Source: Candidatus Nomurabacteria bacterium
GTDB lineage: Bacteria; Patescibacteriota; Minisyncoccia; Phycocordibacterales; UBA9973
Direction of reading: 5' to 3'
Length of the DNA stretch: 64,000 bases
Assembly (NCBI GenBank): GCA_026395965.1
Contig: JAPLXS010000006.1
Location: forward strand, 233,165 to 297,164
Made by a program: the position numbers and the translations under genes. Numbering within the stretch: the stretch's first letter is position 1; each line of letters begins with the position of its first letter. Positions 1,383 to 58,966 of the stretch are shown piece by piece. The notes below the pieces were generated by a model. It was given only the letters and a program-made list of their open reading frames with translations. It was not told the origin of the DNA and did no database searches.

Positions 1383-2375
1383 ATGTCAAGCCCAAACAAA
1401 ACAAATAAAGATGAGGGATTCTTAGACCAAACATTGCGTCCGGGTATTTGGTCGGACTATATAGGTCAAGAAAACATAAAAGCCAACCTTAAAATACTAC
1501 TCACTGCAGCAGAAGAACGCTCCCACCCTGCTGAACATATACTATTTTACGGACCGCCGGGACTTGGAAAGACTACACTCGCTCATTTAATAGCAAAAGA
1601 AACAAATAGACAAATCAAAATAACGTCTGGTCCAGCTATTGAAAAAGTTGGTGACCTTGCTTCTATTTTAACCAACCTATCCCCAGGAGATATTGTCTTT
1701 ATAGATGAAATACATAGACTAAATAAAATGGTAGAGGAAATACTTTATCCAGCTATGGAGTCAGGTGTACTTGATATCATTATAGGCAAGGGTCCATCTG
1801 CTCGTACAATACAACTAGAGCTCCCCCCTTTTACTCTCATAGCAGCTACTACTCGCATAGCACTTCTGTCCTCACCTCTTCGTTCTCGATTCTCTGGTGG
1901 AGTGTTTCGTTTAGAATTTTATACCAATGATGAAATCAAAAAAATAATAAATCGCTCTGCGAAAATACTTGGGGTAGAACTAGAAGATGAAGCTCTAGAC
2001 GAGATAGCTAAGCGTTCACGTTTTACACCTCGTACTGCAAATTATTTTCTAAAGCGTTGCAGAGACTATGCCCAGGTCAATAAAGCTATACTATCAAAAG
2101 ATGTTGTCAAAAAATCATTGGCTTTACTTGAAATAGACGAGCTTGGATTGTCTTCTTCTGATAGACGAATACTAGATATAATAATTTCTAAATTTAATGG
2201 CGGTCCAGTAGGTTTGAAAACTATTGCTGCAGCTACTTCTGAAGAAGAAGCTACTATAGAAGAAGTTGTAGAACCATACTTAATACAGCTTGGATTACTC
2301 GACCGCACAGCAAGAGGAAGAGTTGTAACAAAAAAAGGTTATGAACATTTGGGTTATGAATTTATAGAAAATTAA
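1383..2375 (+). CDS. ruvB: Holliday junction branch migration ATPase RuvB
   Basis: AAA+ Walker [18 protein letters not shown], Walker [11 protein letters not shown], RuvB C-terminal winged helix. Confidence 0.95.
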
Positions 2376-2406
2376 GAATTAAGAATTAATAATTACGAAT
2401 TAGGAG
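2371..2406 (+). repeat. Heptamer array (ATTAAGA ATTAAGA ATTAATA ATTACGA ATTAGGA); the ruvB stop codon lies in the first unit
   Basis: 7-nt periodic GAATTAN/TAATTAN tandem units; same family recurs at 11115, 12471, 12579, 19341, 19884, 20286, 58918. Confidence 0.7.
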
Positions 2407-2442
2407 TTTAATACTATGATATACAAATTTATTTTATAATTA

Positions 2443-2531
2443 AAATAATCTTATCAGAGGGGCTTGTGAGCGCGTCGGCGCGAACACTGAACGAATTTTC
2501 ACCAGAAAATTAGTGTACCCTCTGAGAAGAC
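2443..2531 (+). ncRNA. Candidate structured RNA element, copy 1: outer stem TCAGAGGG/CCCTCTGA enclosing hairpins GCGC-GTCG-GCGC and AATTTTC-ACCA-GAAAATT
   Basis: Near-identical reverse-complement copy at 31768-31858 with compensatory changes in both internal stems; same sense as flanking genes. Confidence 0.5.
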
Positions 2532-2562
2532 TATTTTATATTATAAAATTATTAACTTAATT

Positions 2563-3054
2563 ATGAAAATACTATCAATCGATCCTGGTTTTGAAAGAGT
2601 TGGAATAGCTATCATAGAAAAAACTTTCTTAAAGAAGGATTTATTGGTGTACTCAAATTGTTTTAAAACATCAGCAAAGATTCCATTCCCCCACCGACTT
2701 AGAGACATAGGTCTTGAAATTGAAACAATCATAAAAAAATACAAACCCGAAGCACTGGCAATAGAAAAACTATATTTTACTACAAACCAAAAAACTGCTA
2801 TGGGTGTAGCTGAAGCACGAGGAACTATAATATATGTATGTTCAAAAAATAATCTTACTATTTATGAATACACACCTCCACAAATAAAAGTTGCTGTTAC
2901 GGGATATGGTAAAGCTACAAAGAGTATGGTGATGTCTATGGTTCCAAAACTTATAGATATGAATGCCGATATAAATTCAGACGATGAGATAGATGCTATC
3001 GCTATAGGGCTCACTTGTCTTGCTTGTGAAAATGCAGATTTTGTAAAAAAATAA
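2563..3054 (+). CDS. ruvC: Holliday junction resolvase RuvC
   Basis: N-terminal MKILSIDPGFERVGIAI RNase H-like motif, size 163 aa, adjacent to ruvB. Confidence 0.9.
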   Translation: MKILSIDPGFERVGIAIIEKTFLKKDLLVYSNCFKTSAKIPFPHRLRDIGLEIETIIKKYKPEALAIEKLYFTTNQKTAMGVAEARGTIIYVCSKNNLTIYEYTPPQIKVAVTGYGKATKSMVMSMVPKLIDMNADINSDDEIDAIAIGLTCLACENADFVKK

Positions 3055-3112
3055 AATAAGCCGTATTTAAAAGATTATATTGAGTATATTCAATATTTAT
3101 ATTTTATCGGGT

Positions 3113-3121
3113 TTATCCACA
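3113..3121 (+). promoter_or_regulatory. Isolated perfect DnaA box TTATCCACA
   Basis: Exact consensus 9-mer in ruvC-downstream intergenic region. Confidence 0.4.
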
Positions 3122-3188
3122 AACAAAAATGTTGCAAAGAAAATTATATTTTGATACAAATAGTAAATTATAATTTTATTTTAAATTT

Positions 3189-3386
3189 ATGAGTTATCTT
3201 GATGATGAAGAATTAAAAATAGGTATTGATGGAGAGGAAGAGGAAGACCTTGAAGAAAGTGATTCCGATGAAAATTTCCACGACTTACTTGATAGTGATA
3301 ATGACCTAGAATTAGACGACGCAGATGAGGAGGAAGAAGACCTCTTTGGTGATGAAGTCAAAGGACTAGAAGAACCAGAACTATAA
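3189..3386 (+). CDS. Small highly acidic protein (65 aa, about 50% D/E)
   Basis: ORF followed by strong terminator; composition DDEEL...EEEEDLEESDSDE...DDADEEEED. Confidence 0.4.
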   Translation: MSYLDDEELKIGIDGEEEEDLEESDSDENFHDLLDSDNDLELDDADEEEEDLFGDEVKGLEEPEL

Positions 3387-3391
3387 TAAAT

Positions 3392-3424
3392 AAAACCCCG
3401 ACACTATGTCGGGGTTTTATTTAT
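3392..3424. terminator. Bidirectional rho-independent terminator (acidic ORF on +, tyrS on -)
   Basis: aaaaccccgacactatgtcggggtttta with flanking A/T runs. Confidence 0.8.
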
Positions 3425-4620
3425 ATAATATTTATCTTACAAAATCTTTTTTTGCCGATTCTGTATACTCCTTGTTTTGCTGTATCTGTATACAAAGAAA
3501 CTTTTTCGTCTAGGTCTAGGTTTGTTACTGCGCCGGCCTCCACCAATCTACGAAATTCTCCTTTTGAATCAACTATTTTATTTATTAAAAATATATCTAT
3601 TAAACTCTCATCCTTTTTTACTGATATGTTTTCAACATTATCTGGAATTTCTTTTTTAGAGAAAGTATTTTCCCAGTTTTCTTTTGCTTGTTTTGCTTTT
3701 TTTTCTCCGTGGTATATAGATATCGTTTCTTCTGCTAGTCTCATTTTTAAATCACGGGGATTAACAGAGTTCAAGGAAAGTTCATTTGCCATATCTTCTA
3801 TCTCTGACATTGTTGTATTAGTACAAAGCTCAAATCCTGGCACTATCATTCCGTCTGTCCAGCTCATAATCTTTCCATACATCTCTTCTGGTGTATCTGA
3901 GAAGGCTATCATATTGCCTTCTGTTTTACCCATCTTTTTTCCAGAATTATCTTCGAGAAGTTTTATAGTTATTACAAACTTTTCTTTATTTTTTATTGTC
4001 TTCATTAGATCGCGACCACAAAGCATATTGAATGTCTGATCGTTACCTCCAACCTCTCCATCTACATTCATGGCAACAGAATCGTAGGCTTGCATAAGAG
4101 GATACATGAATTCATTTATGTATATTGGTTTGCCTTCTTTTATTCTTTTATCAAACATATCTCTTTCCAGCATTTGCTGGACTGTCATTTGTGAAGCAAG
4201 TGAAAGAACATCTTCAAAATTCATTTTACTGAGCCATTTTGAGTTAAATTTGAATTGGGCAGCATTTTTACCACTAAAAGACAAAAAAGTACTAGCTTGT
4301 TTTTTGTAATTCTTTAGGTTGGCCATTACTTCTTTTTTTGTAAGTTGTTTTCGTGCTGCACTTTTGTCTGTTGGGTCGCCTATCATTGCGGTAAAGTCAC
4401 CCATCAATAAGATAATCTTGTGTCCAGCTTTTTGGAATTCACTTAGTTTTTTAATTGGGATTGCATGACCAAGATGAAGTGTTGGTCCAGTAGGATCTAT
4501 TCCTAAATATATCGTTAGTTTTTCTCCGCGATTCATTTTACTTAAAATAAAATCCTTGGATGGATAAGCAGCAGAAATACCTCTAGTTAATAGGTCATCG
4601 TTTTTTGTATTGCTATTCAT
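3421..4620 (-). CDS. tyrS: Tyrosyl-tRNA synthetase with C-terminal S4 domain
   Basis: HIGH motif PTGPTLHLGH, KMSKS-like KKMGKTEGN, C-terminal S4-like segment. Confidence 0.9.
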   Translation of the reverse strand: MNSNTKNDDLLTRGISAAYPSKDFILSKMNRGEKLTIYLGIDPTGPTLHLGHAIPIKKLSEFQKAGHKIILLMGDFTAMIGDPTDKSAARKQLTKKEVMANLKNYKKQASTFLSFSGKNAAQFKFNSKWLSKMNFEDVLSLASQMTVQQMLERDMFDKRIKEGKPIYINEFMYPLMQAYDSVAMNVDGEVGGNDQTFNMLCGRDLMKTIKNKEKFVITIKLLEDNSGKKMGKTEGNMIAFSDTPEEMYGKIMSWTDGMIVPGFELCTNTTMSEIEDMANELSLNSVNPRDLKMRLAEETISIYHGEKKAKQAKENWENTFSKKEIPDNVENISVKKDESLIDIFLINKIVDSKGEFRRLVEAGAVTNLDLDEKVSLYTDTAKQGVYRIGKKRFCKINII

Positions 4621-4687
4621 AGCTATACTTTACCACATAAATATATCTTTGTCCGCAAAAACAAATATTATGATATGATATCAGAAT

Positions 4688-7189: not shown

Positions 7190-7193
7190 AAAA

Positions 7194-7457
7194 TTATTTA
7201 ATATCTGTGAAATATATATCTACTAAAATATCTTTTAGTTTTGAAAGTATTTGTTTTTTGTGAATCATAATCTCGCTTCTTAGAATTGGAGATCCTTGTA
7301 TATAAATACAACCACCTTTCAGTTTTATTTGATCACTATCTATAGGGTGTCGTATTTCTTCTGATATTGTTTTTATAACAATATTTTTAGTGTCTTCTTT
7401 TTGATTAATTAATTTTTTAAATTTTTCTAAAAAATTAGATATTTGATTATAATCCAT
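7194..7457 (-). CDS. Small DUF721/DciA-like protein downstream of dnaN
   Basis: 87 aa, position immediately after dnaN as is typical for DciA/DUF721; weak motif similarity only. Confidence 0.4.
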   Translation of the reverse strand: MDYNQISNFLEKFKKLINQKEDTKNIVIKTISEEIRHPIDSDQIKLKGGCIYIQGSPILRSEIMIHKKQILSKLKDILVDIYFTDIK

Positions 7458-7486
7458 TTGTGAAAAATTCTTAATTATTAATTACT

Positions 7487-10583: not shown

Positions 10584-10585
10584 AC

Positions 10586-10907: not shown

Positions 10908-11114
10908 ATGGGTAAATCAATAATTTGGCTTATAAACATATACCAAAAAACACCCTTAAAATCACACTCATCGTGTGTTTTTTTACCAACTTGTTCTGAA
11001 TACACCAAACAATCAATTGTAAAATATGGAGCTTTTAAAGGGGTTTTACGAGGTATTATAAGGATATTTCGTTGCCATCCTTGGCAGAAAAATAGATATG
11101 ACCCGGTAAGATAG
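10908..11114 (+). CDS. yidD: Membrane protein insertion efficiency factor YidD
   Basis: 68 aa, motif CxFxPTCSEY...CHPW; synteny rnpA-yidD-yidC. Confidence 0.85.
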   Translation: MGKSIIWLINIYQKTPLKSHSSCVFLPTCSEYTKQSIVKYGAFKGVLRGIIRIFRCHPWQKNRYDPVR

Positions 11115-11240
11115 TTAATAATTAGGAATTAAGAATTACTAGTACCCAATAGGTCATTCTACTGAATGAGGCGTTTTGCTAAATCTGGAATTAAAAACCC
11201 CAATTAACCAAAATTCTTAATTCCTAATTTTTAATTATTT
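11115..11240. repeat. Inverted pair of heptamer arrays (11115-11140 forward, 11211-11240 reverse-complement) flanking a 70 bp core
   Basis: ttaataattaggaattaagaattact ... aaattcttaattcctaatttttaattattt. Confidence 0.6.
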
Positions 11241-12009: not shown

Positions 12010-12477
12010 ATGTATAAAGATAAAATAAAGGAGGCAGTTGAAAGTATATTTAAACATACAGCTTGTACTATTACAAAGTGTGATTTTTCAGAAGAGAGTG
12101 GAATGCTTTGGTGTATGATAGAAACACCAGATTCAAACTTTATGATAGGTAGAGATGGGGAAACATTACGCTCACTCAACCATATAATTCAAAAGATTGT
12201 AGAAAAAGATACAATAAAAACAGAAGAAAAAGGACCAAGTATATTTATCGATATAAACGGTTATCAAAAAAAGCGATTTGAGAATTTAAAGAACATAGCT
12301 CACATGATGGCAGAGAGAGCCCGTTATTTTAAAAGCAATATAGAGATAGATCCAATGCCCGCATTTGAAAGAAGAATAGTACACATGTTCTTGGAAGGCG
12401 CCAAAGATATCAAAACAGAGTCAGAGGGCTACGGACCTACGAGAAGAGTTGTTATAAAATACATAGAGAGTAATTAA
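12010..12477 (+). CDS. jag: Jag/KhpB RNA-binding protein (KH + R3H domains)
   Basis: R3H motif RRIVHMFLEG...GYGPTRRVVI; downstream of yidC. Confidence 0.8.
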   Translation: MYKDKIKEAVESIFKHTACTITKCDFSEESGMLWCMIETPDSNFMIGRDGETLRSLNHIIQKIVEKDTIKTEEKGPSIFIDINGYQKKRFENLKNIAHMMAERARYFKSNIEIDPMPAFERRIVHMFLEGAKDIKTESEGYGPTRRVVIKYIESN

Positions 12478-12634
12478 GAATTAATAATTACGAATTAGGA
12501 ATAAAAAATACCATGACAGTGTCATGGTATTTTTTATCTAGTATTATTTTTTTAATTTTTAATTATTGTTCTCTCCCCTATTCCAATTCCTAATTCCTAA
12601 TTCCTAATTCGTAATTATTAATTCTTAATTATTT
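12471..12634. repeat. Heptamer array (12471-12502), terminator hairpin (12503-12536), then inverted 8-unit heptamer array (12579-12634)
   Basis: taattaagaattaataattacgaattaggaata | aaaaaataccatgacagtgtcatggtatttttt | tattccaattcctaattcctaattcctaattcgtaattattaattcttaattattt; stop codons of jag and of the 503 aa gene lie inside the arrays. Confidence 0.7.
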
Positions 12635-16565: not shown

Positions 16566-18395
16566 TTATGAATTTGTTGAAAGTAAGTCTTTCTTGGCTT
16601 TTTGAATAGCAAGTATTTGTGATGGATCTGAAGTAATGATCTGGTCCTCTGTATAAGAAGCTATTGTTTTAATAGCAACGTGTTTTAGCCCAGCAAAGAA
16701 TATACCCTCGCCTACATTTGCTTCAAGTAAGAGGTATTTTTCTTCATCTGTGAGGTTGAAAGTCTTTTGTAATACATCTATGGTTGCTGGGGATTGTTTC
16801 AAGAGTAGTTGAATAGATGAGTTTGTAACAATAGGTATACCATAAGGACTTTTCATAAAATCTCCTACGTCCTGAGTGATAGTAGCAAGACCTAGATAGT
16901 ATTTACGTCCTCTTTTTGCAATAGAATACAAGAAAGAAGCAGTATCTTCTGATTTCATCATCCACCAAGCCTCATCAACTACGAGCAATCTCTTTTTGAT
17001 ATTTTTACGGATAGAATTCCAAATATAGTGAGTGATTATATACATTGCGACAGGCTTAAGCTCATCCTCCATGTCTCTAACAGAAAAAACAATAAATTTT
17101 CTATTTATATCTACGTTTGAAGGCTGGTTTAAGAATGAAGCCCAAGAACCATGAGTATATTTTACCAATCTCTGCATAAGAGACTCACTTCCCTCCATAC
17201 CAGAAAGAACTACTTCAAAGTCTGAGAGCATTGGAGGTTCAATATTCATGAAATCTGAATTGGTTGTTATGTCTTTCAAGGCATAAGTTTCAGTAATAGC
17301 AGAGTCAACAAGTGAATCTTCTTCTGGTGTAAGTCCACCAAGCATTATTCTAAATAGACCAACAAGATTTATGGTATTTGCACGGAGTACATCAGCACCA
17401 GTTTCATCTCCTGTAGGTATTGGTAAGTCAAAAGGGTTTATGTGGTGGTCTGAAGAAAGAGCAATGTTGAAATATCTACCTCCCACTGCTTCTGCTAGGT
17501 ATTCGTATTCGCGTTCAGGGTCTATAACAATAACTTCTGTATCAAACATCAAAGTACGAATAATCTCTAGTTTTGTGGCATAAGATTTACCTGCACCAGC
17601 TGTAGCAAAGGTAATAGAGTTGTAGTTTGGTAAAGAAAATCTATCAAAAAGTATAAGACTAGAGTTATGACGGTTTACCCCATATAGTATTCCCCTATCT
17701 TCTGTTAGGTCAAAGGATACAAATGGGAAAATACTTGAAAGAGGTTCAGTATTTAGTTTTTGGTGTATACCTAAAATATCTGTACCTAATGGTATGACAC
17801 TTTTGAAGCCCTCATTTTGTTGAAATAATGCAGGTTTAAGATAAATAAGCTTTGAATCTAGAAGAGATTTTATCTCGTTCTCAATTTTAAATAAATCATT
17901 GTCATTCTCGGCATATACAGTGATATAAAGCCCGACATCAAACATTTTCTCTTGAGCTTGCATTAGATTGTTTCTCAAATCCTCTAGGTCTCTGTATGCT
18001 GTATCTAGCATCGGGTCACGAACGAGACCTTTTGATTCACGAATAGAAATCTGACTTTGAACCTCAGCTACTTTTTTCTGGAAAGATCTCATTATTTCTG
18101 CTGTATCTATAGGATGAATAAAAATAGAAATATCATAAACCTTGTCCAGGTTTATGATTGGAGAAAACCAGTTGTCACTGAGGTATCTTGGGTATGATAT
18201 TACGAAAAATGTTCTAGCTATTTTATCTCCAAGATTTAAAGATTTTGGTGTTATTTGAAGAGCAGAAGGAGCAATAATATCTTGTAGCTCAAGAGTTGCA
18301 GCTTTGTAGATTTCACTAGGCAAAACAGGCATAACCATACTTCGGTTATTTTTAAGATCGTCCCCTTTTCCAAATAATGATGAAAATATTGACAT
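16566..18395 (-). CDS. VirB4/PrgJ-type type IV secretion ATPase, central + ATPase portion (apparent C-terminal fragment of a split gene)
   Basis: VirB4 mid-region ARTFFVISYPRYL, Walker A ATAGAGKSYATK, Walker B RLLVVDEAWWMM. Confidence 0.8.
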   Translation of the reverse strand: MSIFSSLFGKGDDLKNNRSMVMPVLPSEIYKAATLELQDIIAPSALQITPKSLNLGDKIARTFFVISYPRYLSDNWFSPIINLDKVYDISIFIHPIDTAEIMRSFQKKVAEVQSQISIRESKGLVRDPMLDTAYRDLEDLRNNLMQAQEKMFDVGLYITVYAENDNDLFKIENEIKSLLDSKLIYLKPALFQQNEGFKSVIPLGTDILGIHQKLNTEPLSSIFPFVSFDLTEDRGILYGVNRHNSSLILFDRFSLPNYNSITFATAGAGKSYATKLEIIRTLMFDTEVIVIDPEREYEYLAEAVGGRYFNIALSSDHHINPFDLPIPTGDETGADVLRANTINLVGLFRIMLGGLTPEEDSLVDSAITETYALKDITTNSDFMNIEPPMLSDFEVVLSGMEGSESLMQRLVKYTHGSWASFLNQPSNVDINRKFIVFSVRDMEDELKPVAMYIITHYIWNSIRKNIKKRLLVVDEAWWMMKSEDTASFLYSIAKRGRKYYLGLATITQDVGDFMKSPYGIPIVTNSSIQLLLKQSPATIDVLQKTFNLTDEEKYLLLEANVGEGIFFAGLKHVAIKTIASYTEDQIITSDPSQILAIQKAKKDLLSTNS

Positions 18396-18672
18396 CCCGT
18401 TAGAGATAGGAAGCGCCTAATCTGTTTTTAAGATAACGCTTACCCATTCCCGATTTTAAATATAATTCTCTCGACCGAGCTTTTTTCTCGCTCTTACATG
18501 CTTCATAATAAATAATTTCAAACGGACCTCTTCCTTTTGTATAAGTAGACAAACCATTGTTGTGTTGCAGAAGGCGTTTCCGTAAATCTTTTGTACTTCC
18601 TGTGTATATATTACCATCTTTTTTACTTTTTAATATATAAGTGTAATAAAACATATATAATCTCTAACGGGA
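18395..18672 (-). other. Inverted-repeat leader element, site 2 (TCCCGTTAGAGAT ... ATCTCTAACGGGA) with GIY-YIG gene nested between the arms
   Basis: 13-bp perfect IR; GIY-YIG ATG 5 nt inside the upstream arm, its TAA stop inside the downstream arm, which directly abuts the VirB4 ATPase ORF ATG. Confidence 0.6.
18400..18654 (-). CDS. Small GIY-YIG nuclease family protein (UPF0213/YhbQ-like)
   Basis: FYYTYILKSKKDGNIYTGSTKDLRKRLLQHNNG...YTKGRGPFEIIYYE, 84 aa. Confidence 0.8.
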   Translation of the reverse strand: MFYYTYILKSKKDGNIYTGSTKDLRKRLLQHNNGLSTYTKGRGPFEIIYYEACKSEKKARSRELYLKSGMGKRYLKNRLGASYL

Positions 18673-18683: not shown

Positions 18684-19337
18684 TTATTGTAGTTTCATTC
18701 CTTGGCTAGTGTCGCCAGGGTTAAATGTTTTATAAAAAAGCTCGACTACTTGGTCTGTTTTAAGTTGAGAAGTTCTGATGCCTACTCTACCAAGACCACT
18801 GATAATAACACCTACTCTCTGGTCGAGCTGTGTACGCTTCTCCTCAAATGAAGCCATATCCATTGCCTTTTTTGTATCTTCTATTTGTTTTTTTGGAGCA
18901 CCGCTTCCCATAAAACTATCCATCATTTTATTGCTAGACTTTATAACATTTGCACTGTAAGGTACAACAATAAAAAAAGTTTTTGTCATTATATTTACTT
19001 CGTCAGTAAATGATTTTATGAAGTCTATGTATTCTTTGGTTTGTATTTTTAAAAGAGGCTCTGTTTGCTCTTTTAATCTTTCTTCTAGGGTCATTAGGTA
19101 TGGGCGTATGTCCAATCTGCGTGATTGCATACATATTTGAGTTGGAAAATCTAAACCGTTGAGAAAATTTTGGAACTCACTTATGATAGCTGTTTGTTCG
19201 TCTGCTGATTTAAGAGATAAGTTTAGAGAAGATGCTAGTAGTATAGAACGAAGACCACCATCCTTTAGTATGATGATGCCATTTCTTACTTCTTTAATTG
19301 GTACAAACTCCTGAGAGCTTTTTGCATCTATTGCCAT
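18684..19337 (-). CDS. VirB4/PrgJ N-terminal domain protein (apparent N-terminal fragment of split VirB4)
   Basis: Gram-positive VirB4 N-terminal pattern QEFVPI..NGIIILKDG...LNLSL...EQTAIISEFQNFLNGLD..TQI. Confidence 0.55.
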   Translation of the reverse strand: MAIDAKSSQEFVPIKEVRNGIIILKDGGLRSILLASSLNLSLKSADEQTAIISEFQNFLNGLDFPTQICMQSRRLDIRPYLMTLEERLKEQTEPLLKIQTKEYIDFIKSFTDEVNIMTKTFFIVVPYSANVIKSSNKMMDSFMGSGAPKKQIEDTKKAMDMASFEEKRTQLDQRVGVIISGLGRVGIRTSQLKTDQVVELFYKTFNPGDTSQGMKLQ

Positions 19338-19340
19338 ATA

Positions 19341-19446
19341 AAATAATTACGAATTAATAATTACGAATTTATAACTAATAACATTGTACCATATTACAAA
19401 TAATTAAGAATTATTAACCTTACTCCCTAATTCCTAATTATTAATT
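19341..19446. repeat. Heptamer arrays (19341-19370 and 19401-19419 forward; 19425-19446 reverse) in the 5' leader of the VirB4-N ORF
   Basis: aaataattacgaattaataattacgaattt ... taattaagaattattaacc ... ccctaattcctaattattaattt. Confidence 0.6.
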
Positions 19447-19455
19447 TATAATTAT

Positions 19456-19883: not shown

Positions 19884-19915
19884 TAATTACGAATTAGGAA
19901 TTAATAATTACGAAT
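19884..19915 (+). repeat. Heptamer array (forward) left of the four-helix-bundle gene
   Basis: taattacgaattaggaattaataattacgaat. Confidence 0.6.
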
Positions 19916-19921
19916 GAACGA

Positions 19922-20272
19922 TTAAGATCTGGATGTTTTTATAATCGAACCAAGTATTTTTAATAATTCTTCACATTCACACATAAGTGTACCAGATTGT
20001 TCCTTGTTTAGAAAACCACTATCTGATAAAAGCTGTAACCAATAAAGTGTTTCCCTTGCCTCTTTGTATGAAATACTCATCTTTGAGATGAAATCATTTT
20101 TTGATTGTGCCCCTATTGCCTCCTCTATATTTGCCCCAATAGATGTTCCGGATCGAATTAATTGTTTTGAAAGAATAAATTCTTTTTTGTCTTTAGTTAA
20201 ATCCTGATATATTTTTATTATATTAAGACTGAAGGCATAACTCTTACTTCTTACGATATTGTCCGACTTCAT
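19922..20272 (-). CDS. Four-helix-bundle protein (TIGR02436-like; family commonly found in 23S rRNA intervening sequences)
   Basis: QLIRSGTSIGANIEEA...KMSISYKEARETLYWLQLL signature, 116 aa. Confidence 0.75.
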   Translation of the reverse strand: MKSDNIVRSKSYAFSLNIIKIYQDLTKDKKEFILSKQLIRSGTSIGANIEEAIGAQSKNDFISKMSISYKEARETLYWLQLLSDSGFLNKEQSGTLMCECEELLKILGSIIKTSRS

Positions 20273-20285
20273 TTTTTTTGATTTA

Positions 20286-20318
20286 AATTCTTAATTCCTA
20301 ATTATTAATTCTTAATTT
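20286..20318 (-). repeat. Heptamer array (reverse orientation) right of the four-helix-bundle gene
   Basis: aattcttaattcctaattattaattcttaatttt, inverted relative to 19884-19915. Confidence 0.6.
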
Positions 20319-43301: not shown

Positions 43302-44240
43302 ATGATTACCTATTTAGAACAATTAAAAAGAGAATTTCTTGAACATGTAGAAATAGAGAAAGGCAATAGTTTGAAAACTGTAAATAATTACGATTATTAT
43401 ATTGGCCGTTTTTTTGATTTTGCAAAAATTTCTGAACCAAAAGAAATATCTGATGAAAAAATTCGTGAATATCGTTTATATTTAAATCGTCAGCCTGGTG
43501 TAAAAATCCGTGGACAAGAATCTGGTAATCTTAAAAAAAATACTCAAAATTATCATCTAATTGCATTGAGGTCTTTTCTTAAATATTTAATGAAAAGAGG
43601 TATCACTTCCCTATCACCTGAACGTATAGACTTGGCAAAAATAAAGGAAAGAAGTTTGGATTTAATATCTAGCGCAGAGCTTAATAGACTATTGTCTGCC
43701 CCTCTTACTTTAGCATCTACAGATAATAAATTCGACGGCCCCAAAAAATTAAGAGACAAGGCAATTTTAGAATTATTTTTTTCTACAGGTTTACGCTTGT
43801 CAGAATTGTGTTCTATAAATAGGGATCTTGATTTATCTAAAGATGAATTCTCTATTCGTGGTAAAGGAGAAAAAGTCCGAGTTGTATTTTTATCTGACTC
43901 AGCCAAAGATGCAATACGCGAATATTTAAAAATCCGCAAAGATATGGATGAACCACTTTTTATTCAATACTCTCAAAATAGCGGAAAAAGTAACAGACTC
44001 ACTCCACGCTCAGTAGAACGAATTGTAAAATACTATGCTATCGTTGCCGGTATTTCAAAAAAAGTTACACCCCATATCATAAGACACTCATTTGCTACAG
44101 ACTTGCTTTCAAATGGTGCAGATATTCGTTCTGTCCAAATGATGCTAGGTCACGCCAATATTGCTACTACTCAGATATATACTCATATTACAGACAAACA
44201 ACTTCGTGATGTTCATAAGAAATTTCATAGTAAAAAATAA
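43302..44240 (+). CDS. xerD: Tyrosine site-specific recombinase XerC/XerD family
   Basis: R..HxxR..Y catalytic set: HIIRHSFATDLL...LGHANIATTQIYTH. Confidence 0.85.
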   Translation: MITYLEQLKREFLEHVEIEKGNSLKTVNNYDYYIGRFFDFAKISEPKEISDEKIREYRLYLNRQPGVKIRGQESGNLKKNTQNYHLIALRSFLKYLMKRGITSLSPERIDLAKIKERSLDLISSAELNRLLSAPLTLASTDNKFDGPKKLRDKAILELFFSTGLRLSELCSINRDLDLSKDEFSIRGKGEKVRVVFLSDSAKDAIREYLKIRKDMDEPLFIQYSQNSGKSNRLTPRSVERIVKYYAIVAGISKKVTPHIIRHSFATDLLSNGADIRSVQMMLGHANIATTQIYTHITDKQLRDVHKKFHSKK

Positions 44241-50133: not shown

Positions 50134-50191
50134 ATCCCGCACCATATTAAAAAAACACCTTGATAGGTGTTTTTTTAATATGGTGCGGGAT
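50134..50191. terminator. 26-bp-arm perfect palindrome incorporating the 3' acceptor end of the adjacent tRNA
   Basis: atcccgcaccatattaaaaaaacacc ttgata ggtgtttttttaatatggtgcgggat. Confidence 0.6.
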
Positions 50192-50254
50192 AAGGGAGTC
50201 GAACCCTTCACCACAGTTTGGAAAACTGTTATTTTACCGATAAACTAATCCCGC
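50181..50254 (-). tRNA. tRNA-Gly (anticodon UCC), CCA encoded
   Basis: Acceptor GCGGGAT, anticodon stem ACAGT/ACTGT with loop TTTCCAA, T-arm GGTTCGACTCC, 3' CACCA. Confidence 0.75.
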
Positions 50255-50318: not shown

Positions 50319-50543
50319 AGTGTATGCTTATTGGTTATTGTGTGAACAATAATAAATGCAGGGATATCTTTCTCTTTGAGAAGAGTTGCATATATGTACG
50401 GGAACGCGAGTATGCTTATCGACTACTGCGTAAGCAGGGATATCTTTCTTTACGATAACAGTTGTATGTATAGATGAGAACGTGAGTACGCTTATCGACT
50501 ACCACGTAAACCGGGATATCTTTCTCTACGAGAACAGTATGCC
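50319..50543. repeat. About three imperfect tandem copies of a 76 bp unit between two tRNAs
   Basis: Units begin gagtaYgcttatcgactacYRcgtaa...gggatatctttctYt; both halves of each unit are conserved. Confidence 0.7.
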
Positions 50544-50629: not shown

Positions 50630-50690
50630 CCCCGACAATAAGTAAAAAGACCACTAATTTATTTAGTGGTCTTTTTACTTATTGTCGGGG
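50630..50690. terminator. 28-bp-arm perfect palindrome incorporating the tRNA-Pro 3' end
   Basis: ccccgacaataagtaaaaagaccactaa ttta ttagtggtctttttacttattgtcgggg. Confidence 0.6.
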
Positions 50691-50755
50691 TGCCGGGAAT
50701 CGAACCCGGCCCTTATGTTCCCAAAACATAGATACTACCGATATACTACACCCCG
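50685..50755 (-). tRNA. tRNA-Pro (anticodon UGG)
   Basis: Acceptor CGGGGTG/CACCCCG, anticodon stem TATGT/ACATA with loop TTTGGGA, T-arm GGGTTCGATTCCC. Confidence 0.75.
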
Positions 50756-50833: not shown

Positions 50834-50855
50834 TTTATGTTATCCTTCTTTGTGT

Positions 50856-52056: not shown

Positions 52057-52074
52057 TTTTTTGTATTTTAACCA

Positions 52075-52114
52075 AAAGAAAAACCACTCGTAGATAGAAT
52101 AGAGTGGTTTTTTC
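52075..52114. terminator. Bidirectional rho-independent terminator
   Basis: aaaaaccactcgtagatagaatagagtggtttttt. Confidence 0.75.
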
Positions 52115-52145
52115 TTAACTTAATTGCTTTATAATAACAATCAAA

Positions 52146-52418
52146 TTATTTAACAGCGTCTTTAAGAGCTTTTGCTGCTCTAAATTTTGGAACTGTTGTT
52201 GCAGCTACTTTAACTTGCTCTCCTGTCTTTGGGTTGCGAGCCATACGGGCTGCACGCGCCTTAACAGAAAAGATACCAATACCTGCTATTGATACTTCGC
52301 CTCCTTTTTTCAAAGTAGCAACGATTGCATCAAAGATTCCATTCACTACTTCTTCAGCTTGAACTTTTGTTCCGCCTAGTTTTTCATGAACGAGTTCTAC
52401 TATTGCTTGTTTATTCAT
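52146..52418 (-). CDS. hup: DNA-binding protein HU
   Basis: 90 aa, MNKQAIVELV...GIGIFSVKARAARMARNPKTGE. Confidence 0.9.
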   Translation of the reverse strand: MNKQAIVELVHEKLGGTKVQAEEVVNGIFDAIVATLKKGGEVSIAGIGIFSVKARAARMARNPKTGEQVKVAATTVPKFRAAKALKDAVK

Positions 52419-52580
52419 TATGTTAATTCTATATTTTTTTTACAAATAAAGAATGTTATTAGAATAATAATTCGACCGTTTTCAAACGATCCCTAATAAA
52501 TAGGTATGATATCATTATATACCAAGGTAATTTTAAAACAAGTGTTTTAGCCTGTTGACATATTTGATAAATGTATCATT

Positions 52581-52630
52581 AAAAAATGCAGTAAATTTTG
52601 TATTAGCAAAATTTACTGCATTTTTTATTT
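52581..52630. terminator. Rho-independent terminator
   Basis: aaaaaatgcagtaaattttgtattagcaaaatttactgcatttttt. Confidence 0.75.
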
Positions 52631-52644
52631 AATTTATAGATTTT

Positions 52645-54168: not shown

Positions 54169-54405
54169 GCGACTTTTTTGTCGCTTTTACAACACAGAGA
54201 TTAGACCACCCGTTTGTATTGGGAGTTTATCAAAACATGTATGATTGATTTAGAACAAAACTGAAAATGGAATGTGTAATTCATAAAAAAATCGATATCG
54301 TGACTGCATTAAAAAAGCTAACATTTAAATATAAACTTTTAAATTTCGATATTATTATAATACTCTAAAAACAGGGTTTTGTCTATGGCAAAGAATTTTT
54401 ATTAT

Positions 54406-54439
54406 AAAAACCCTCTAATCTAGATTAGAGGGTTTTTAT
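54406..54439. terminator. Rho-independent terminator
   Basis: aaaaaccctctaatctagattagagggttttt. Confidence 0.8.
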
Positions 54440-54447
54440 AATTTTAT

Positions 54448-55038
54448 TTACTTTATACTTTTTGGTTTTGATATTATTGCATCCACAATACCATACTTTT
54501 TAGCTTCATCGGATGTCATCCAGTAGTCACGGTCTGAGTCTTTCTCTACTTCATGAATCTTTTTGTTTGTATTTGCAGCGAGAATTTTGTTCAAATTGTC
54601 TTTTGTTCGAAGAATATGTTTTGCGTTGATGGCAATATCTGATGCTTGCCCTTCTGTTCCACCCATAACTTGGTGAATCATAACTTCTGAGTTTGGCAAT
54701 GAAAATCTTTTGCCTTTTTGACCAGAAGAAAGTATTAACGCTCCCATTGATGCAGCGATACCTACACAGATAGTGGACACATCACTTTTAATAAAATTCA
54801 TTGTATCTATGATTGCTAGTCCAGCAGTAACTGAACCGCCGGGCGAGTTTACATAAAGATGGATATCTTTCTTTGGATCTGAATGATTAAGATAAAGAAG
54901 CTGGGCTATTATAAGATTGGCAACATGGTCGTCTATCGGACCACCAAGAAATATTATTCTTTCGTTTAGAAGACGAGAATATATGTCATAAGCTCTTTCT
55001 CCAAATTGTGATTTTTCTATAACTGTGGGTATTAACAT
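54448..55038 (-). CDS. clpP: ATP-dependent Clp protease proteolytic subunit
   Basis: Ser-His-Asp triad context [18 protein letters not shown]. Confidence 0.9.
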
Positions 55039-55163
55039 ATGTATTAGTTTCTAGTAACTAGCTTTTAGTGACTAGAAGAATTAACTGGTAACGTTTTGAT
55101 TATAACATAAAATATTTTTTTTTATATTTTTACAAAATTATTATGGGGTACTCTTGGTGGATA

Positions 55164-55208
55164 AAAAACAACAGAGTTCAACATAAATGTTGAACTCTGT
55201 TGTTGAAA
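55164..55208. terminator. Rho-independent terminator
   Basis: aacagagttcaacataaatgttgaactctgtt. Confidence 0.75.
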
Positions 55209-55231
55209 TATATTCCGTTTCACAGAGGCTA

Positions 55232-56308
55232 CTATTTTTGGTTTTCTAAGAATTTAAATACTTTTTCATTCTCTAGCATTTGCTCTACATAAGCACGAGC
55301 ACGAGAGTGGTCAGCATCTTTGTACATGGCAGTTATTTGAACAACATCTTTTTCTATTTCTTCTTCTGTTGGTTTTAGACTTTCTTTTTCAGATATTGTA
55401 TGGATAATCATTTGAAGCTTTGAACGTTTTTCTGCTTCAGAACGCCATTCAGTTCTCAACTCCTCTTCAGTTTTATTTATTTGTTTTAAATAATCTTCAA
55501 ATTTAAATCCAGCACTTGTTACATCTGCTTGTAGACGGTACATGATTTTGTCTGTTTCACTCTGAATAAGAATTTCTGGTATTTCTCCTTCTGTATGTTT
55601 CACAAGCTCTTCAACTATAGCCATACGAAGTTTATCTTTTTGTTCAGTTTCTTTTTCTATGCGCATATTGCCACGGATTTTTTCTTTGAAAGCATCTGCA
55701 CTGGCAAAGTCTCCAAAAGTTTTTACGAATGCATCGTCAAATACAGGGTATTCACTTTCAGTAATTTCTGGATGGTTTGCTTTGTGTTCTTCTTCGGATT
55801 CTCCTTCTTTGTGTTCGTGAGCTGGTCTTGTCTGTTCTGCTCTCATTTTACGAAGCTCAAGGATTGTTTTCTCAACTTCAGCTTCATCAACTACTATTTC
55901 TTTTTTATAATCTTCTTTTGAATTTTGTTCTTGAGATATTTTTTTATAATCAGGAAGTTTCATTTCTGGGAGTACTGCAGTTATTATTTTAAATTCTAAA
56001 TCAGAACCCTTGCCGATTTTTGTTATTGATACTTGTGGTTGCCCAATAGCATCGATTTTATTTTCTTCTAAAATTTTTGCATAAACACTAGATAGTGCAG
56101 CTTCAGCCATTTCTTCTAGTAGTTGCATTTCTTGTACGTTTTCTTTTACTACAGATGCAGGAACTTTTCCTTTTCTGAAACCTGCTATTTCCATTCTCTC
56201 CCCGATACGATCCAATGCTTTACCCTCGTATTTTTCGAATTCTACTACCTCTAAAATACCTATTATTTCTACCTCACTTTTGTCTAATTTTGTAATTGTT
56301 GTTTTCAT
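55232..56308 (-). CDS. tig: Trigger factor
   Basis: Ribosome-binding signature GFRKGKVP; tig-clpP synteny. Confidence 0.85.
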   Translation of the reverse strand: MKTTITKLDKSEVEIIGILEVVEFEKYEGKALDRIGERMEIAGFRKGKVPASVVKENVQEMQLLEEMAEAALSSVYAKILEENKIDAIGQPQVSITKIGKGSDLEFKIITAVLPEMKLPDYKKISQEQNSKEDYKKEIVVDEAEVEKTILELRKMRAEQTRPAHEHKEGESEEEHKANHPEITESEYPVFDDAFVKTFGDFASADAFKEKIRGNMRIEKETEQKDKLRMAIVEELVKHTEGEIPEILIQSETDKIMYRLQADVTSAGFKFEDYLKQINKTEEELRTEWRSEAEKRSKLQMIIHTISEKESLKPTEEEIEKDVVQITAMYKDADHSRARAYVEQMLENEKVFKFLENQK

Positions 56309-56373
56309 AGTTTTTACATCTTATACTAAAATTTAATAATTTTCAAATACACAATATAATCACAATTTTACAC

Positions 56374-56411
56374 CCTAACTCACTTTACGCTATAGCGTAA
56401 AGTGAGTTAGG
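56374..56411. repeat. 38-bp perfect palindrome CCTAACTCAC-TTTACGCTATAGCGTAAA-GTGAGTTAGG, 3' of the wHTH/Cas2-like gene
   Basis: Shares the 16-bp core TTACGCTATAGCGTAA with the palindrome at 56916-56949. Confidence 0.7.
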
Positions 56412-56420
56412 AAAAATTAT

Positions 56421-56897
56421 TTACTTAAATCCTTTTTCTAATTTGAATGTTTTTACTAGATCTTTTAAGCCTATCTCTTTTATGTACTCCATAAATTCTT
56501 TTGGAAGAGGGGAAGGTCCAACCCATACACTTCTTTGAATCATAATAAAACCAAATTTGATCAATGCCCTGCGGAACCAGTCACGCTCATTCTTTTTATC
56601 TTCTGGTATATCATAAAGAAGAAGCAAATTTTTTGGACCATTGTTTTCTATTGGTTCAAATGTTTTTAATTGATATTTTTTATTTTTAGATAAAAATTCT
56701 TTCCCTTTTTTATTCAAAATATAATATTCATTTTTTTTATCTAAATACCCGTTATTGTATAGTTCAGCAAATTTGTTTCTAACGGATTGTTTTTTGTAAT
56801 TTTGTAGAGTAGGAAGAAAAAACGCACTCATAGGAATACCTTTATAATAAAATTTAGGAGTATTTAATATTTCTAATATATCATTTTTTATAGACAT
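56421..56897 (-). CDS. Hypothetical small protein, probable N-terminal wHTH plus C-terminal Cas2/VapD-fold-like domain
   Basis: LLLYDIPEDKKNERDWFRRALIKFGFIMIQRSVWVG resembles the Cas2 core YDI...R...L...G.R.Q.SV; no CRISPR or cas neighbours. Confidence 0.35.
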   Translation of the reverse strand: MSIKNDILEILNTPKFYYKGIPMSAFFLPTLQNYKKQSVRNKFAELYNNGYLDKKNEYYILNKKGKEFLSKNKKYQLKTFEPIENNGPKNLLLLYDIPEDKKNERDWFRRALIKFGFIMIQRSVWVGPSPLPKEFMEYIKEIGLKDLVKTFKLEKGFK

Positions 56898-56915
56898 AAT
56901 TATATTGTATCATTC

Positions 56916-56949
56916 TAACCCGCATTACGCTATAGCGTAATGCGGGTTA
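56916..56949. repeat. 34-bp perfect palindrome TAACCCGCA-TTACGCTATAGCGTAA-TGCGGGTTA, 5' of the same gene
   Basis: Same core as 56374-56411; outer arm covaries. Confidence 0.7.
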
Positions 56950-57015
56950 AGATTTTATACATTATTAGCTTGATTAAAAATTATAATAATTCTAAATAAT
57001 TTTAACCCATCAATT

Positions 57016-57047
57016 AAAAAATCCCTCAAACGAGGGATTTTTTAATT
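57016..57047. terminator. Rho-independent terminator
   Basis: aaaaaatccctcaaacgagggatttttt. Confidence 0.8.
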
Positions 57048-57073
57048 CATAGAATTTTAGAAAATATTATTAT

Positions 57074-57661
57074 TTAATTTTCTAGTTTTGGCGCGTATTC
57101 TTTTGTGTATTTTTCTTTGCACTCATTTAGGACTTTTATGGCTTCGTCTCTTCCGTAAAATGTTTCAACTACTCCTGTGCCTGGTTTTTTTAAGGCTTTT
57201 ACATTTTCCCAGAAGTATTTAGTTTGTGTTTTGAAATATTCACCAAGATCATCAACGTTCTTTATGTGGTCTGAACGTCTATCATCATTTAGAACGGCGA
57301 TTATTTTGTCATCTACTTCACCACCATCAATAAATTTCATTACACCAATTATTCGAGCTTCTACAAGACAGCCCGCAACAAGAGGTTCTGTGATGTTTAC
57401 AATTTCAACATCAAGAGGATCACCATCGTAATCCCAAGTCATAGGTATTGCTCCGTATGTAAATGGATATGCAAGAGATGAGTATCCTACACGATCAAGT
57501 TTTAGTTGTCCTGATTCTGTAATCATTTCGTACTTATTTATACTTCCTTCTGATACTTCTATGATTGCATTTATTACTCCATTTTCTTCATTCGCGAAAG
57601 CGGGGAGTACATGCAATAGGTTGTACATGTATTTACTTGGTTTTTGATTTATATTTGCCAT
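57074..57661 (-). CDS. ppa: Inorganic pyrophosphatase (family I)
   Basis: DGDPLDV, Mg-binding acidic cluster. Confidence 0.9.
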   Translation of the reverse strand: MANINQKPSKYMYNLLHVLPAFANEENGVINAIIEVSEGSINKYEMITESGQLKLDRVGYSSLAYPFTYGAIPMTWDYDGDPLDVEIVNITEPLVAGCLVEARIIGVMKFIDGGEVDDKIIAVLNDDRRSDHIKNVDDLGEYFKTQTKYFWENVKALKKPGTGVVETFYGRDEAIKVLNECKEKYTKEYAPKLEN

Positions 57662-57734
57662 AAATTTTTTTATTTAATTTATTAATAATTTTCAAAATTA
57701 TTAATAAATTACTTTTAAAGTTCTAATACTTTAT

Positions 57735-58916
57735 TTACGCCTCTGTACCATCATCTACTATCCCATCATCTATATTACTATCAGCTTCCTTATTTTCTTC
57801 TTCGTTTGTTTTTGAGTCAGCACTTTTGATATCTATTCTCCATCCTGTTAGTTTCGCAGCAAGACGAACATTTTGTCCTCCTTTTCCGATAGCTAGAGAC
57901 AATTGATCAGTTGCTACTTCTACTGTTGCTTTGTGTTCAGCATCATTTACTTCTATGCCTAGTACGTTGGCTGGTGATATAGAACTTGATATATATGTAG
58001 CTGCATCAGGAGACCAAGGAATAATATCTATTTTTTCTCCATTTAATTCACTCATAACAGTAGTTACGCGAACTCCTTTTTGTCCTACACATGAACCCAC
58101 TGGATCTACGTGCTCATCATTTGAAAATACAGCAATCTTTGAACGGCTTCCAGCTTCACGAGCAATAGATTTTATTTCTACTACTCCTCCTGCTATTTCG
58201 GGAGCTTCCATAGCAAAAAGTCCTTCTATAAGTTCTGGATGCGTACGAGAAAGCTTTAGATTTACTCCGCGTGGAGTTTCTTCTACTGAATACAAATATG
58301 CACGGATTCTCTCGCCACGACGATAGAACTCACCAGGGATTTGTTCTTCAGGCAAGATAATACCTGTAGCACGATTGAAGTCGATATATACGATTCCTCT
58401 TTCTACCTTAGAAACGAATCCGTTTATTATTTCTCCTTCCTTTGTTCCGTATTCGTCTATGATAGCACTACGCTCTGCTTCACGGATTTTTTGTATGATA
58501 ACTTGCTTTGCAGTTTGTGCAGCAATACGTCCATAATCATCTTTGTTTTCAAGAGGGAATATAAGTTCGTCTCCTGTTTTAACGTCATTTTTGATTTTTT
58601 TAGCATCTTCTAATAGGATGTGATGTTCTTCGTTGAAGCGAACTCTCTCATCATCTTCGGAAATCTCTTCTTCCTCTTCGTCTTCAGTTGTCATTCTGAC
58701 AAGAGTATCATCTACAGCTATTTTGATTTGATAGAATTCCATTAAACCAGTATCTACATCTATCTTTGCTCTTATAATTTGACCCTTTTTGCCGTAATCT
58801 TTTTTGTATGCAGCAGCAAGAGCTTGCTCTATAGCATCTATTATTTTTTCTCGAGGAATTTTTCTTTCTACCTCAAGCTGCTCAAGAGCAGATTTCATTG
58901 TTTTTAAATCCAACAT
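57735..58916 (-). CDS. nusA: Transcription termination/antitermination factor NusA
   Basis: N-terminal domain, S1, two KH motifs (IGKGGQNVRLAAKLTGWRIDI). Confidence 0.9.
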   Translation of the reverse strand: MLDLKTMKSALEQLEVERKIPREKIIDAIEQALAAAYKKDYGKKGQIIRAKIDVDTGLMEFYQIKIAVDDTLVRMTTEDEEEEEISEDDERVRFNEEHHILLEDAKKIKNDVKTGDELIFPLENKDDYGRIAAQTAKQVIIQKIREAERSAIIDEYGTKEGEIINGFVSKVERGIVYIDFNRATGIILPEEQIPGEFYRRGERIRAYLYSVEETPRGVNLKLSRTHPELIEGLFAMEAPEIAGGVVEIKSIAREAGSRSKIAVFSNDEHVDPVGSCVGQKGVRVTTVMSELNGEKIDIIPWSPDAATYISSSISPANVLGIEVNDAEHKATVEVATDQLSLAIGKGGQNVRLAAKLTGWRIDIKSADSKTNEEENKEADSNIDDGIVDDGTEA

Positions 58917-58917
58917 A

Positions 58918-58966
58918 TAATTAATTACGAATTAAGAATTAAAAATTACGAATTGATAATTAATAA
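58918..58966 (+). repeat. Heptamer array directly upstream of the nusA start codon
   Basis: taattaattacgaattaagaattaaaaattacgaattgataattaataa. Confidence 0.6.

Follow-up and report, generated by a model that had tools for sequence, protein, structure and literature searches.

What are the tandem seven-nucleotide repeats that recur at gene boundaries in a Candidatus Nomurabacteria bacterium, and how did they come to be there? The question is raised by a 64,000-nucleotide stretch of its DNA (contig JAPLXS010000006.1, positions 233,165 to 297,164; hereafter the window, with coordinates counted from its first letter), in which arrays of units of the form AATTANG adjoin the ends of genes and often face one another as inverted pairs. 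The answer to which we incline, with moderate confidence, is that the arrays represent the inverted-repeat arms of intervening-sequence-like selfish cassettes co-transcribed with host genes, and that most of these arms no longer have an open reading frame (ORF) with them. A full cassette would consist of a tandem-heptamer arm, then a gene for a PF05635 four-helix-bundle protein, then a reverse-complementary heptamer arm. The protein is that of PF05635/TIGR02436, the '23S rRNA intervening-sequence protein' (S23p, an Avd-like four-helix bundle), and is labelled IVP here.

Arrays in the window were called by sequence reading, by Tandem Repeats Finder and by a period-7 scan for AATTA cores. The scan yields 11 (AATTANG)n arrays of 3-7 units each, a unit being AATTA followed by AG, CG, GG or AT, and 10 of the 11 lie within the first 20.3 kb, near dnaA/dnaN and the type IV secretion cluster. 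With up to two mismatches allowed, the pattern AATTANGAATTANGAATTA has 33 matches in the window compared with 0.12 ± 0.33 in dinucleotide shuffles, which sets the repeats apart from low-complexity noise. All the arrays listed in a preliminary description of this DNA are recovered by sequence reading and Tandem Repeats Finder, and the genes had been identified correctly; the gene calls include RuvB, RuvC, YidD, YidC, Jag, a 503-aa peptidoglycan-binding protein, a VirB4-N/TraC-like protein, PrgI and NusA. A 29-nt identity reported for 2377-2405 is exact, with the second copy at 12472-12500 rather than four bases away at 12476-12504, and a third copy lies on the minus strand at 12602-12630. Three exact copies of this sequence, AATTAAGAATTAATAATTACGAATTAGGA, are in keeping with the recent spread or constraint that had been suggested. 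The PF05635 gene within one inverted pair, the recurrence across phyla, the rule of polarity and the array at 7463-7483 had not been described.

The full element spans 19885-20317, between a 373-aa gene and PrgI, and its neighbours are type IV secretion system genes. On its minus strand (19922-20272) lies the IVP gene, which encodes a 116-aa four-helix-bundle protein matching PF05635 (Pfam, 1.1e-28) and TIGR02436 (8e-33); the closest solved structure is PDB 2RLD (1e-30), with five chains in the entry. A protein identical to it is on record from a Candidatus Nomurabacteria genome, which puts the window in the candidate phyla radiation/Patescibacteria. The 5′ arm (20283-20317, minus strand) reads AATTAAG AATTAAT AATTAGG AATTAAG AATTTAA, sets in directly past the stop codon of the 373-aa gene and leaves 10 nt between its end and the IVP ATG. 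The 3′ arm (19885-19926, plus strand) is reverse-complementary in type to the 5′ arm. It overlaps with the IVP stop codon, and 9 nt separate its other end from the start codon of PrgI. Minimum free energy and centroid folds both pair the two arms, placing the whole IVP ORF in the loop. This is the one full copy in the window, about nine further arms being ORF-less and found in short hairpins or as solo arrays. An experimental precedent is the 23S rRNA intervening sequence of Coxiella, in which a terminal stem of 28 bp, cut by RNase III, encloses an S23p ORF, and next to the ORF are tandem heptamers, GACAGAT, whose copy number varies between strains; S23p-carrying 23S rRNA intervening sequences are known from Coxiella burnetii, Leptospira and Brucella (PMC4990558). 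It is this Coxiella-like anatomy of S23p ORF, stem and heptamers which leads us to read the arrays as arms of intervening-sequence-like cassettes.

The same architecture recurs far beyond the window. An exact 19-mer, AATTACGAATTAGGAATTA, was scanned across one genome per species and found in more than 120 genome stretches, a lower bound, from many phyla (among the matches listed, Bacteroidota, Nostoc, Gammaproteobacteria, Ignavibacteria, Chloroflexota, Planctomycetota, Gemmatimonadota, Calditrichota and others). Sixty of these loci, ranging in GC content from 31 to 62%, were examined in detail. All eight close IVP homologues found in the 19-mer loci have a forward arm upstream and a reverse arm downstream; in a ninth homologue, which is divergent, the flanking arrays are (GGATGAA)n and the complement of this repeat. 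The preliminary description had proposed counts across the genome and in relatives; the same heptamers and the arms-plus-gene architecture are found across many phyla. In Bacterium BMS3Bbin03 (L121, 600-1010), the arrays directly after an IVP gene belong to a higher-order tandem repeat (~73-128 nt) in which the 19-mer occurs five times.

An unbiased test is provided by 80 metagenome loci selected by IVP protein similarity alone (homologue alignment), 70 of which have full flanks. Period-7 repeats are ~18-fold denser within 130 nt of the IVP ORF ends than elsewhere in these loci. Arrays lie upstream of the gene in 61 of the 70, downstream in 63 and on both sides in 54, and in 43 the upstream and downstream consensus units are reverse-complementary within one mismatch. 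Arm size is narrow (median 4.4 units upstream, 4.6 downstream). The median distance from the end of the upstream arm to the ATG is 9.5 nt, and the downstream arm sets in 3.5 nt (median) ahead of the last base of the stop codon. Paired with each other, the arms form a duplex with medians of 26 bp and −25.8 kcal/mol (58 loci), where random control segments average −10.8. Positions 6-7 of the unit, which are variable, agree between the arms in 72-76% of unit pairs, a figure inflated by the use of the best-scoring register; this agreement indicates that the arms are true inverted copies. Many loci have units other than AATTANG, each with a matching partner, among them GATTAAG, ACGGAAA, GAGTTAC, GGTTAGT and GAACAAT. 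Twelve viral contigs carry IVP genes with heptamer arms, the units there including TTGTAAA, CAATTGA and GTTGAAA, again with partners. Solo arrays tend to use the same unusual unit as the IVP arms of their locus (p = 0.0014). The anatomy of arms, ORF and arms is conserved across phyla and distant IVP clades, period 7 and complementarity being kept while the unit changes, and dispersed solo arrays within a genome use the unit of the IVP arms. The PF05635-type family is very large, with 10,992 clusters at 50% identity (E-value up to 0.001). Arrays in direct orientation flank IVP genes at four metagenome loci (L247, L292, L293 and L296), and a viral contig (L338, 1430-1500 and 1860-1900) has reversed polarity, with (TAATTCG)n upstream and (AATTACG)n downstream of IVP. 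A scan of viral contigs with AATTANNAATTANNAATTANNAATTA proved unspecific, matching AT-rich giant-virus DNA and palindromic (AATTAAT)n, and was not used.

These data bear on an account in which the arrays are neutral: functionless simple-sequence repeats, unconnected with any gene, that polymerase slippage has produced in AT-rich spacers. It is true that unit number and type change fast between relatives and that one array has apparently grown from local sequence (see below), and in many bacteria no class of long simple repeat is commoner than the heptamers (Mrazek 2007, as cited in PMC4679880). Identical units in many phyla and in genomes of 31-62% GC are, however, hard to reconcile with such an origin, as are the strict polarity, the inverted partners with matched variable positions, the ~18-fold enrichment around one gene family and the 33 matches in the window where 0.12 are expected. 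Slippage without a gene link is thus considered highly improbable.

The position of the arrays relative to host genes follows a rule. The stop codons of ruvB (2373-2375), jag (12475-12477) and the 503-aa gene (12625-12627, minus strand) lie inside the first unit of an array, as had been claimed; for yidD, included in the same claim, the stop (11112-11114) overlaps only the degenerate first unit of the array at 11113-11140. The starts of nusA (58916), the 217-aa VirB4-N/TraC-like gene (19337) and PrgI (19875) are 6-9 nt from an array, in agreement with the preliminary description. Read on the coding strand of the neighbouring host gene, the units in the window appear as AATTANG after a stop and as CNTAATT before a start, and the AATTANG direction always leads from the host gene toward the spacer or loop. 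The pair at 20283-20317/19885-19926 bears the opposite relation to the gene it flanks, both arms pointing toward the 116-aa ORF. In the 19-mer genome loci, short adjacent pairs are convergent in 26 cases and divergent in 2, and the gaps between convergent arms are bimodal, at 2-91 nt and 317-496 nt, the larger class being of IVP size.

At 49% of 183 arrays in the genome loci, a long same-strand ORF stops within −21 to +10 nt of the 5′ end of the array, compared with 6% of random positions. Peaks of ORF ends at −6, −13 and −20 relative to the array imply that ORFs run on into it until some unit provides a stop. Part of the positional bias is forced: units with AAG, AGG or AAT carry TAA or TAG, and a period of 7 brings these stops into all frames, so that such arrays are excluded from gene interiors. 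Arms thus adjoin the 3′ end of the upstream host gene, with the unit often giving the stop codon. For genome annotation this means that arrays mark gene ends, provide stop codons and can alter predicted C-termini. In 56 of 62 cases IVP and its upstream neighbour share a strand, compared with 67% for control neighbour pairs (p = 2e-5); with its downstream neighbour IVP shows no co-orientation bias.

A second, very distant lineage shows the same relation between arms and dispersed arrays. XCC0516 of Xanthomonas campestris (PDB 2GSC, five chains) is at the edge of detection by a profile of the IVP alignment (E = 0.03). Orthologues of XCC0516 lie between accB and accC in Xanthomonas, Dyella and Dokdonella, and genes of this clade are flanked by GGGAATC-type arrays upstream and by the complement downstream, the pairing of the arms being kept across genera with three compensatory pairs. 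The accB-IVP-accC arrangement (L341, L344-L346, L349-L352) looks like an old, vertically kept insertion in the essential acetyl-CoA carboxylase operon. Rehm et al. (2015) described GGGAATC at 186 intergenic sites in X. campestris, including 70 convergent pairs, took the repeat to be quadruplex-forming and generally without mobile-element association, and found the sites in unusually stable regions; in their supplementary table the arm upstream of XCC0516 is repeat #15, the gene being called only 'conserved' (PMC4692102). Since this arm is one of the catalogued repeats, the unit of the dispersed arrays matches that of the IVP arms in this lineage too, and the agreement of units within a genome holds for two lineages very far apart.

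What the ORF-less hairpins of the window enclose is a terminator, a small motif or a core with a promoter-like box. The preliminary description had already noted inverted pairs flanking a terminator hairpin or short core, and three short pairs do fold into long stems, with z-scores, taken from the folding tool, of −4.6 to −6.9. The left arm at 11113-11140 (plus strand), directly 3′ of the yidD stop, pairs with 11209-11236 (minus strand; z = −6.2); the loop holds the core motif CCCAATAGGTCATTCTACTGAATGA (11145-11169, plus strand), and the right arm is followed by a promoter-like box, TGATACAAT, which was spotted by eye and is kept in relatives, and then by yidC. After the jag stop, 12472-12502 (plus strand), which begins with an exact 29-nt copy, pairs with a right arm of 7 units at 12582-12630 (minus strand), which contains the stop of the 503-aa gene in its first unit and a further 29-nt copy. 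The tip of this long stem, between the convergent jag and 503-aa genes, is a bidirectional terminator-like hairpin, AAAAAATACCATGACAGTGTCATGGTATTTTTT (12504-12538). The third pair joins an arm by the start of the 217-aa gene (19345-19370, plus strand) to one directly after the PrgI stop (19426-19453, minus strand), with fold z-scores of −4.6 and −6.9; the core between them is kept in relatives and has a promoter-like box, GGTACAAT, on the minus strand (also by eye). These repeats had been reported as a single span, 19341-19446, which resolves into this inverted pair plus a short AATTAAGAATTAT piece. Solo arrays comprise 5 units at 2370-2404 (plus strand; the ruvB stop in the first unit, the 29-nt sequence thereafter), 3 units at 7463-7483 (minus strand; between the dnaN stop and the start of an 87-aa ORF) and 6 units at 58923-58964 (plus strand; 6 nt upstream of the start of nusA, which is on the minus strand). 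An Rfam scan of the window returned four tRNAs only, with no match for the arrays, the ruvB/ruvC spacer or any rRNA.

Comparison with Nomurabacteria relatives, in which YidC identity is 76-86% and gene order is conserved, reveals a rapid turnover. One relative (L321) has plain terminator hairpins and no arrays at the yidD/yidC and jag/503-aa sites. The site of the ruvB array is empty in L326 and L328 and filled in L327, and presence at the 7463-7483 site also differs among relatives. At the TraC/PrgI site (19345-19370/19426-19453), arrays occur in all four genomes compared. The IVP element at the PrgI site is present in the window, L326, L241 and L242; it is absent from L328, where a 22-nt spacer remains, and L327 has in its place, upstream of PrgI, a solo GTAGGAA array. 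Even at shared sites the number and type of units differ, and L324 has the unit AATTACT at two sites.

This pattern cuts both ways for the proposal that the arrays are RNA elements selected by the host, stem-forming modules which end, insulate or stabilise transcripts in the manner of enterobacterial repetitive extragenic palindromic sequences (REP) and bacterial interspersed mosaic elements (BIME), with IVP genes as secondary passengers homing into the loops. The terminator (12504-12538) and the promoter-bearing cores kept in relatives are what such a role would lead one to find, as is the universal presence of the TraC/PrgI arrays among the genomes compared, and the proposal also accommodates the majority of arrays, which lack IVP, and the location of GGGAATC sites in unusually stable regions (Rehm et al., PMC4692102). 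Orthologous sites are, however, often empty in close relatives that function without them (L321, L326, L328), identical units across phyla at 31-62% GC point to horizontal spread over local adaptation, and IVP is the only recurrent cargo, with arms that use the genome's own unit. Host selection as the primary explanation is accordingly judged unlikely.

Filled and empty sites would also be expected of a classical miniature inverted-repeat transposable element (MITE), or of a REP element which a transposase or RAYT from another part of the genome moves in trans, and the small size, intergenic location, multiple copies and terminal inverted repeats suit such an element. The preliminary description had likened the pairs to MITEs, a comparison that finds no support as it stands. 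No target-site duplications were found: the longest shared flank word averages 3.00 compared with 3.14 in controls (37 pairs), although element ends are fuzzy and very short duplications could escape notice. Among the window ORFs scanned there is no transposase, RAYT or reverse transcriptase, only an XerC/D-like integrase (43302-44240), and the ends are tandem arrays of variable length with no fixed termini. Mobilisation of this kind is scarcely credible. Readings as a diversity-generating retroelement, an integron cassette or a CRISPR were likewise rejected, there being no reverse transcriptase, integron integrase or cas operon by the arrays and a spacing and structure which do not fit.

Two other small elements came to light. 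A 24-nt motif, CCCAnTAGGTSATTCTnnTGAATSA, is found in the window at 11145-11169 and at different intergenic sites in relatives (L324 at 4233; L326 at 1927 and 17986; L327 at 956, 2016 and 18345). It contains an internal mini-hairpin with a compensatory G/C swap, is often nested between heptamer arms and at times forms an inverted pair, and looks like a second small repeat family. The ruvB/ruvC spacer (2440-2540; 1000-1140 in L327) holds a GC-rich structured element of ~90 nt in otherwise AT-rich sequence, with a closing stem, TCAGAGGGG...CCCTCTGA in the window and TTGTGGGGG...CCCCACAA in L327, that displays compensatory change. This element is absent in L326 and L328, has no Rfam match and may be a small RNA or another inserted element.

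How might intervening-sequence-like cassettes persist between genes? The cassette would ride on the transcript of the upstream gene, and its arm stem of ~26 bp would be cut by host RNase III, as in the Coxiella 23S rRNA intervening sequence. By analogy with that system, the arm stem is a probable target of RNase III. Excised by the host at the RNA level, the insert would do no harm between genes. A period of 7, which is not a multiple of 3, together with a stop triplet in the unit would present a stop in every frame within three units, so that an insert at the 3′ end of a gene could terminate translation cleanly.

A number of observations weigh against this interpretation. More than 90% of arrays have no IVP gene, only ~16 of the 198 in the genome loci being IVP arms. 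Almost no loops of intermediate size exist, with two intermediates between the modes, so that the ORF-less hairpins are unlike decaying full copies; the idea that their loops are decayed IVP genes was rejected on this ground. Loops with a terminator (12504-12538) or promoter-like cores fit equally well with arrays growing onto gene ends, or with a host function. No strand asymmetry is seen in arm pairing (G-U 51 versus 56, Wilcoxon p = 0.5) in a test confined to the arrays, a version with 100-nt flanks being too noisy, and the lack of bias makes a DNA-level role of the palindrome as possible as an RNA-level one. The window ORFs scanned include no rnc gene for RNase III. A few IVP genes have arms in direct or reversed orientation. 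Finally, the jag/503-aa site of L327 (11318-11345, 11400-11440; on the same contig as L325) carries (GTAGTAA)n and no AATTANG. Its first unit coincides with jag's own last codons (AGTAGTAT), which suggests that the array grew from these codons by local slippage and was not inserted.

A different role for the repeats can also be considered, in which the heptamer runs would serve mainly as binding sites for a pentameric IVP, one heptamer per subunit, with the hairpin incidental or regulatory and solo arrays acting as extra operator-like or RNA-binding sites. Avd binds nucleic acid. PF05635 proteins resemble Avd, the accessory protein of diversity-generating retroelements (PMC10053308), their crystals have five chains per entry (2RLD, 2GSC), arms are held to 4-5 units, and the unit differs between IVP clades yet equals that of the genome's solo arrays. 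The match between clade and unit would, however, be produced by co-inheritance by itself, and simple binding sites have no need of the strong left/right complementarity seen at variable positions and in orthologues. Binding as the main purpose of the arrays appears distinctly unlikely. The preliminary description had suggested a search for a protein that binds the motif, and the IVP pentamer encoded between the arms is a candidate. A more general scheme, possible but put forward only tentatively, is one in which the dispersed heptamers (cyanobacterial STRR, Xanthomonas GGGAATC, Anabaena GGGGAYT, possibly Beggiatoa TAACTGA, and AATTANG in the candidate phyla radiation (CPR), Bacteroidota and others) would all be footprints of one ubiquitous intervening-sequence-like class built around a pentameric PF05635 protein. 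This protein would recognise its own repeat, with one unit per subunit and ~5 units per arm, and so drive or guard the formation and spread of arrays. If PF05635 proteins do read their own repeat, the class would represent mobile or self-propagating elements of a new kind, lacking a transposase.

The link between heptamers and IVP cassettes joins two old puzzles, that of the intergenic 7-nt tandem repeats which many bacteria have by the hundred and that of the nature and spread of rRNA intervening sequences and the S23p gene, and it may explain 7-base repeats in other bacteria. It offers a possible protein partner of known structure (2RLD, 2GSC), RNase III as the putative host nuclease, and tractable organisms in Xanthomonas, Bacteroides and Flavobacterium. 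The IVP gene itself emerges as a recurrent operon insert, even inside accBC in Xanthomonadales. Searches by sequence string and by organism terms returned nothing relevant, and no statement of a general link between heptamer arrays and PF05635 genes was found in the literature searched, the coverage of which was incomplete, so that the link may be noted elsewhere.

Three further features of the window deserve mention. An 84-aa ORF for a GIY-YIG nuclease (18400-18654, minus strand; Pfam 1.8e-18) lies between the halves of a split VirB4 ATPase (16566-18395 and 18684-19337); present in the window and L327 and absent from L326 and L328, it looks like a free-standing homing-endonuclease insertion. 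A 76-nt tandem repeat (50358-50538; 2.4 copies, 81% match) is situated between the genes for tRNA-Gly (50181-50254) and tRNA-Pro (50684-50755). A 158-aa ORF (56421-56897, minus strand) has a Cas2-like or PaaX middle domain, and Tandem Repeats Finder and repeat scans detect no CRISPR array in the window.

A number of parallels can be drawn with known systems. Dispersed intergenic heptamers were first noted around 1990 in cyanobacteria, where the STRR are heptamer repeats, and later in Xanthomonas and Beggiatoa. The present arrays, with at least three tandem 7-nt units at many intergenic sites near ORF ends, are of this kind; the AATTANG unit was not found in the papers searched on described heptamer families. 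With the Xanthomonas GGGAATC and Anabaena GGGGA(C/T)T repeats (PMC4692102) they share many intergenic tandem-heptamer sites near ORF ends, frequent convergent inverted pairs (70 in X. campestris) and a length that varies between relatives. Those repeats are G-rich and are read as quadruplex-forming, whereas AATTANG is AT-rich and unable to form a quadruplex, and the GGGAATC paper drew no connection to the S23p gene. The GC-richer variants AATTGGG and GATTGGG, each seen in a single array, are rotations or near-rotations of GGGGATT and GGGAATC, a resemblance that is only suggestive. TAACTGA direct repeats, known from Beggiatoaceae, cyanobacteria and Bacteroidetes (MacGregor 2015, PMC4679880), are likewise intergenic, stop-containing heptamer arrays with a patchy spread across phyla that suggests horizontal transfer, and the taxa overlap (Bacteroidetes, cyanobacteria and large sulfur gammaproteobacteria). 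Unlike the AATTANG arrays, they are mostly solo and lie just upstream of start codons, and they are not known to be linked to IVP; none occurred in any of the loci analysed.

Similarity to enterobacterial REP/BIME lies in the imperfect palindromes at gene 3′ ends inside operons, in multiple copies and with stems in mRNA. REPs are, however, fixed motifs of ~35 nt mobilised by RAYT transposases, whereas the arms here are variable tandem arrays and the associated gene encodes a four-helix bundle, not a nuclease; the 64-kb window contains no RAYT (Y1 transposase). The IVP has a fold homologous to that of Avd, the resemblance of PF05635 to Avd in sequence and structure having been noted previously (PMC10053308). 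In contrast to a diversity-generating retroelement, neither a reverse transcriptase nor a template/variable repeat pair is found by these genes among the window ORFs scanned. The arrays are not strict MITEs or diversity-generating retroelements, are probably not REP/BIME elements, and belong to the loosely defined group of dispersed intergenic heptamer arrays.

The closest parallel is with the S23p-carrying intervening sequences of 23S rRNA. Both have PF05635 cargo (one copy only in the window, 19922-20272), an ORF enclosed by a long stem of terminal inverted repeats (28 bp in Coxiella, ~26 bp here) and tandem heptamers of variable copy number by the ORF start, and both would form part of a host transcript, as rRNA intervening sequences do. 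The elements differ in that those described here lie between protein-coding genes, outside 23S rRNA helix 9, 25 or 45, and in that the entire arm is a heptamer array, with most copies ORF-less. In their function the cassettes are most like rRNA intervening sequences, of which they are not members since they lie outside rRNA.

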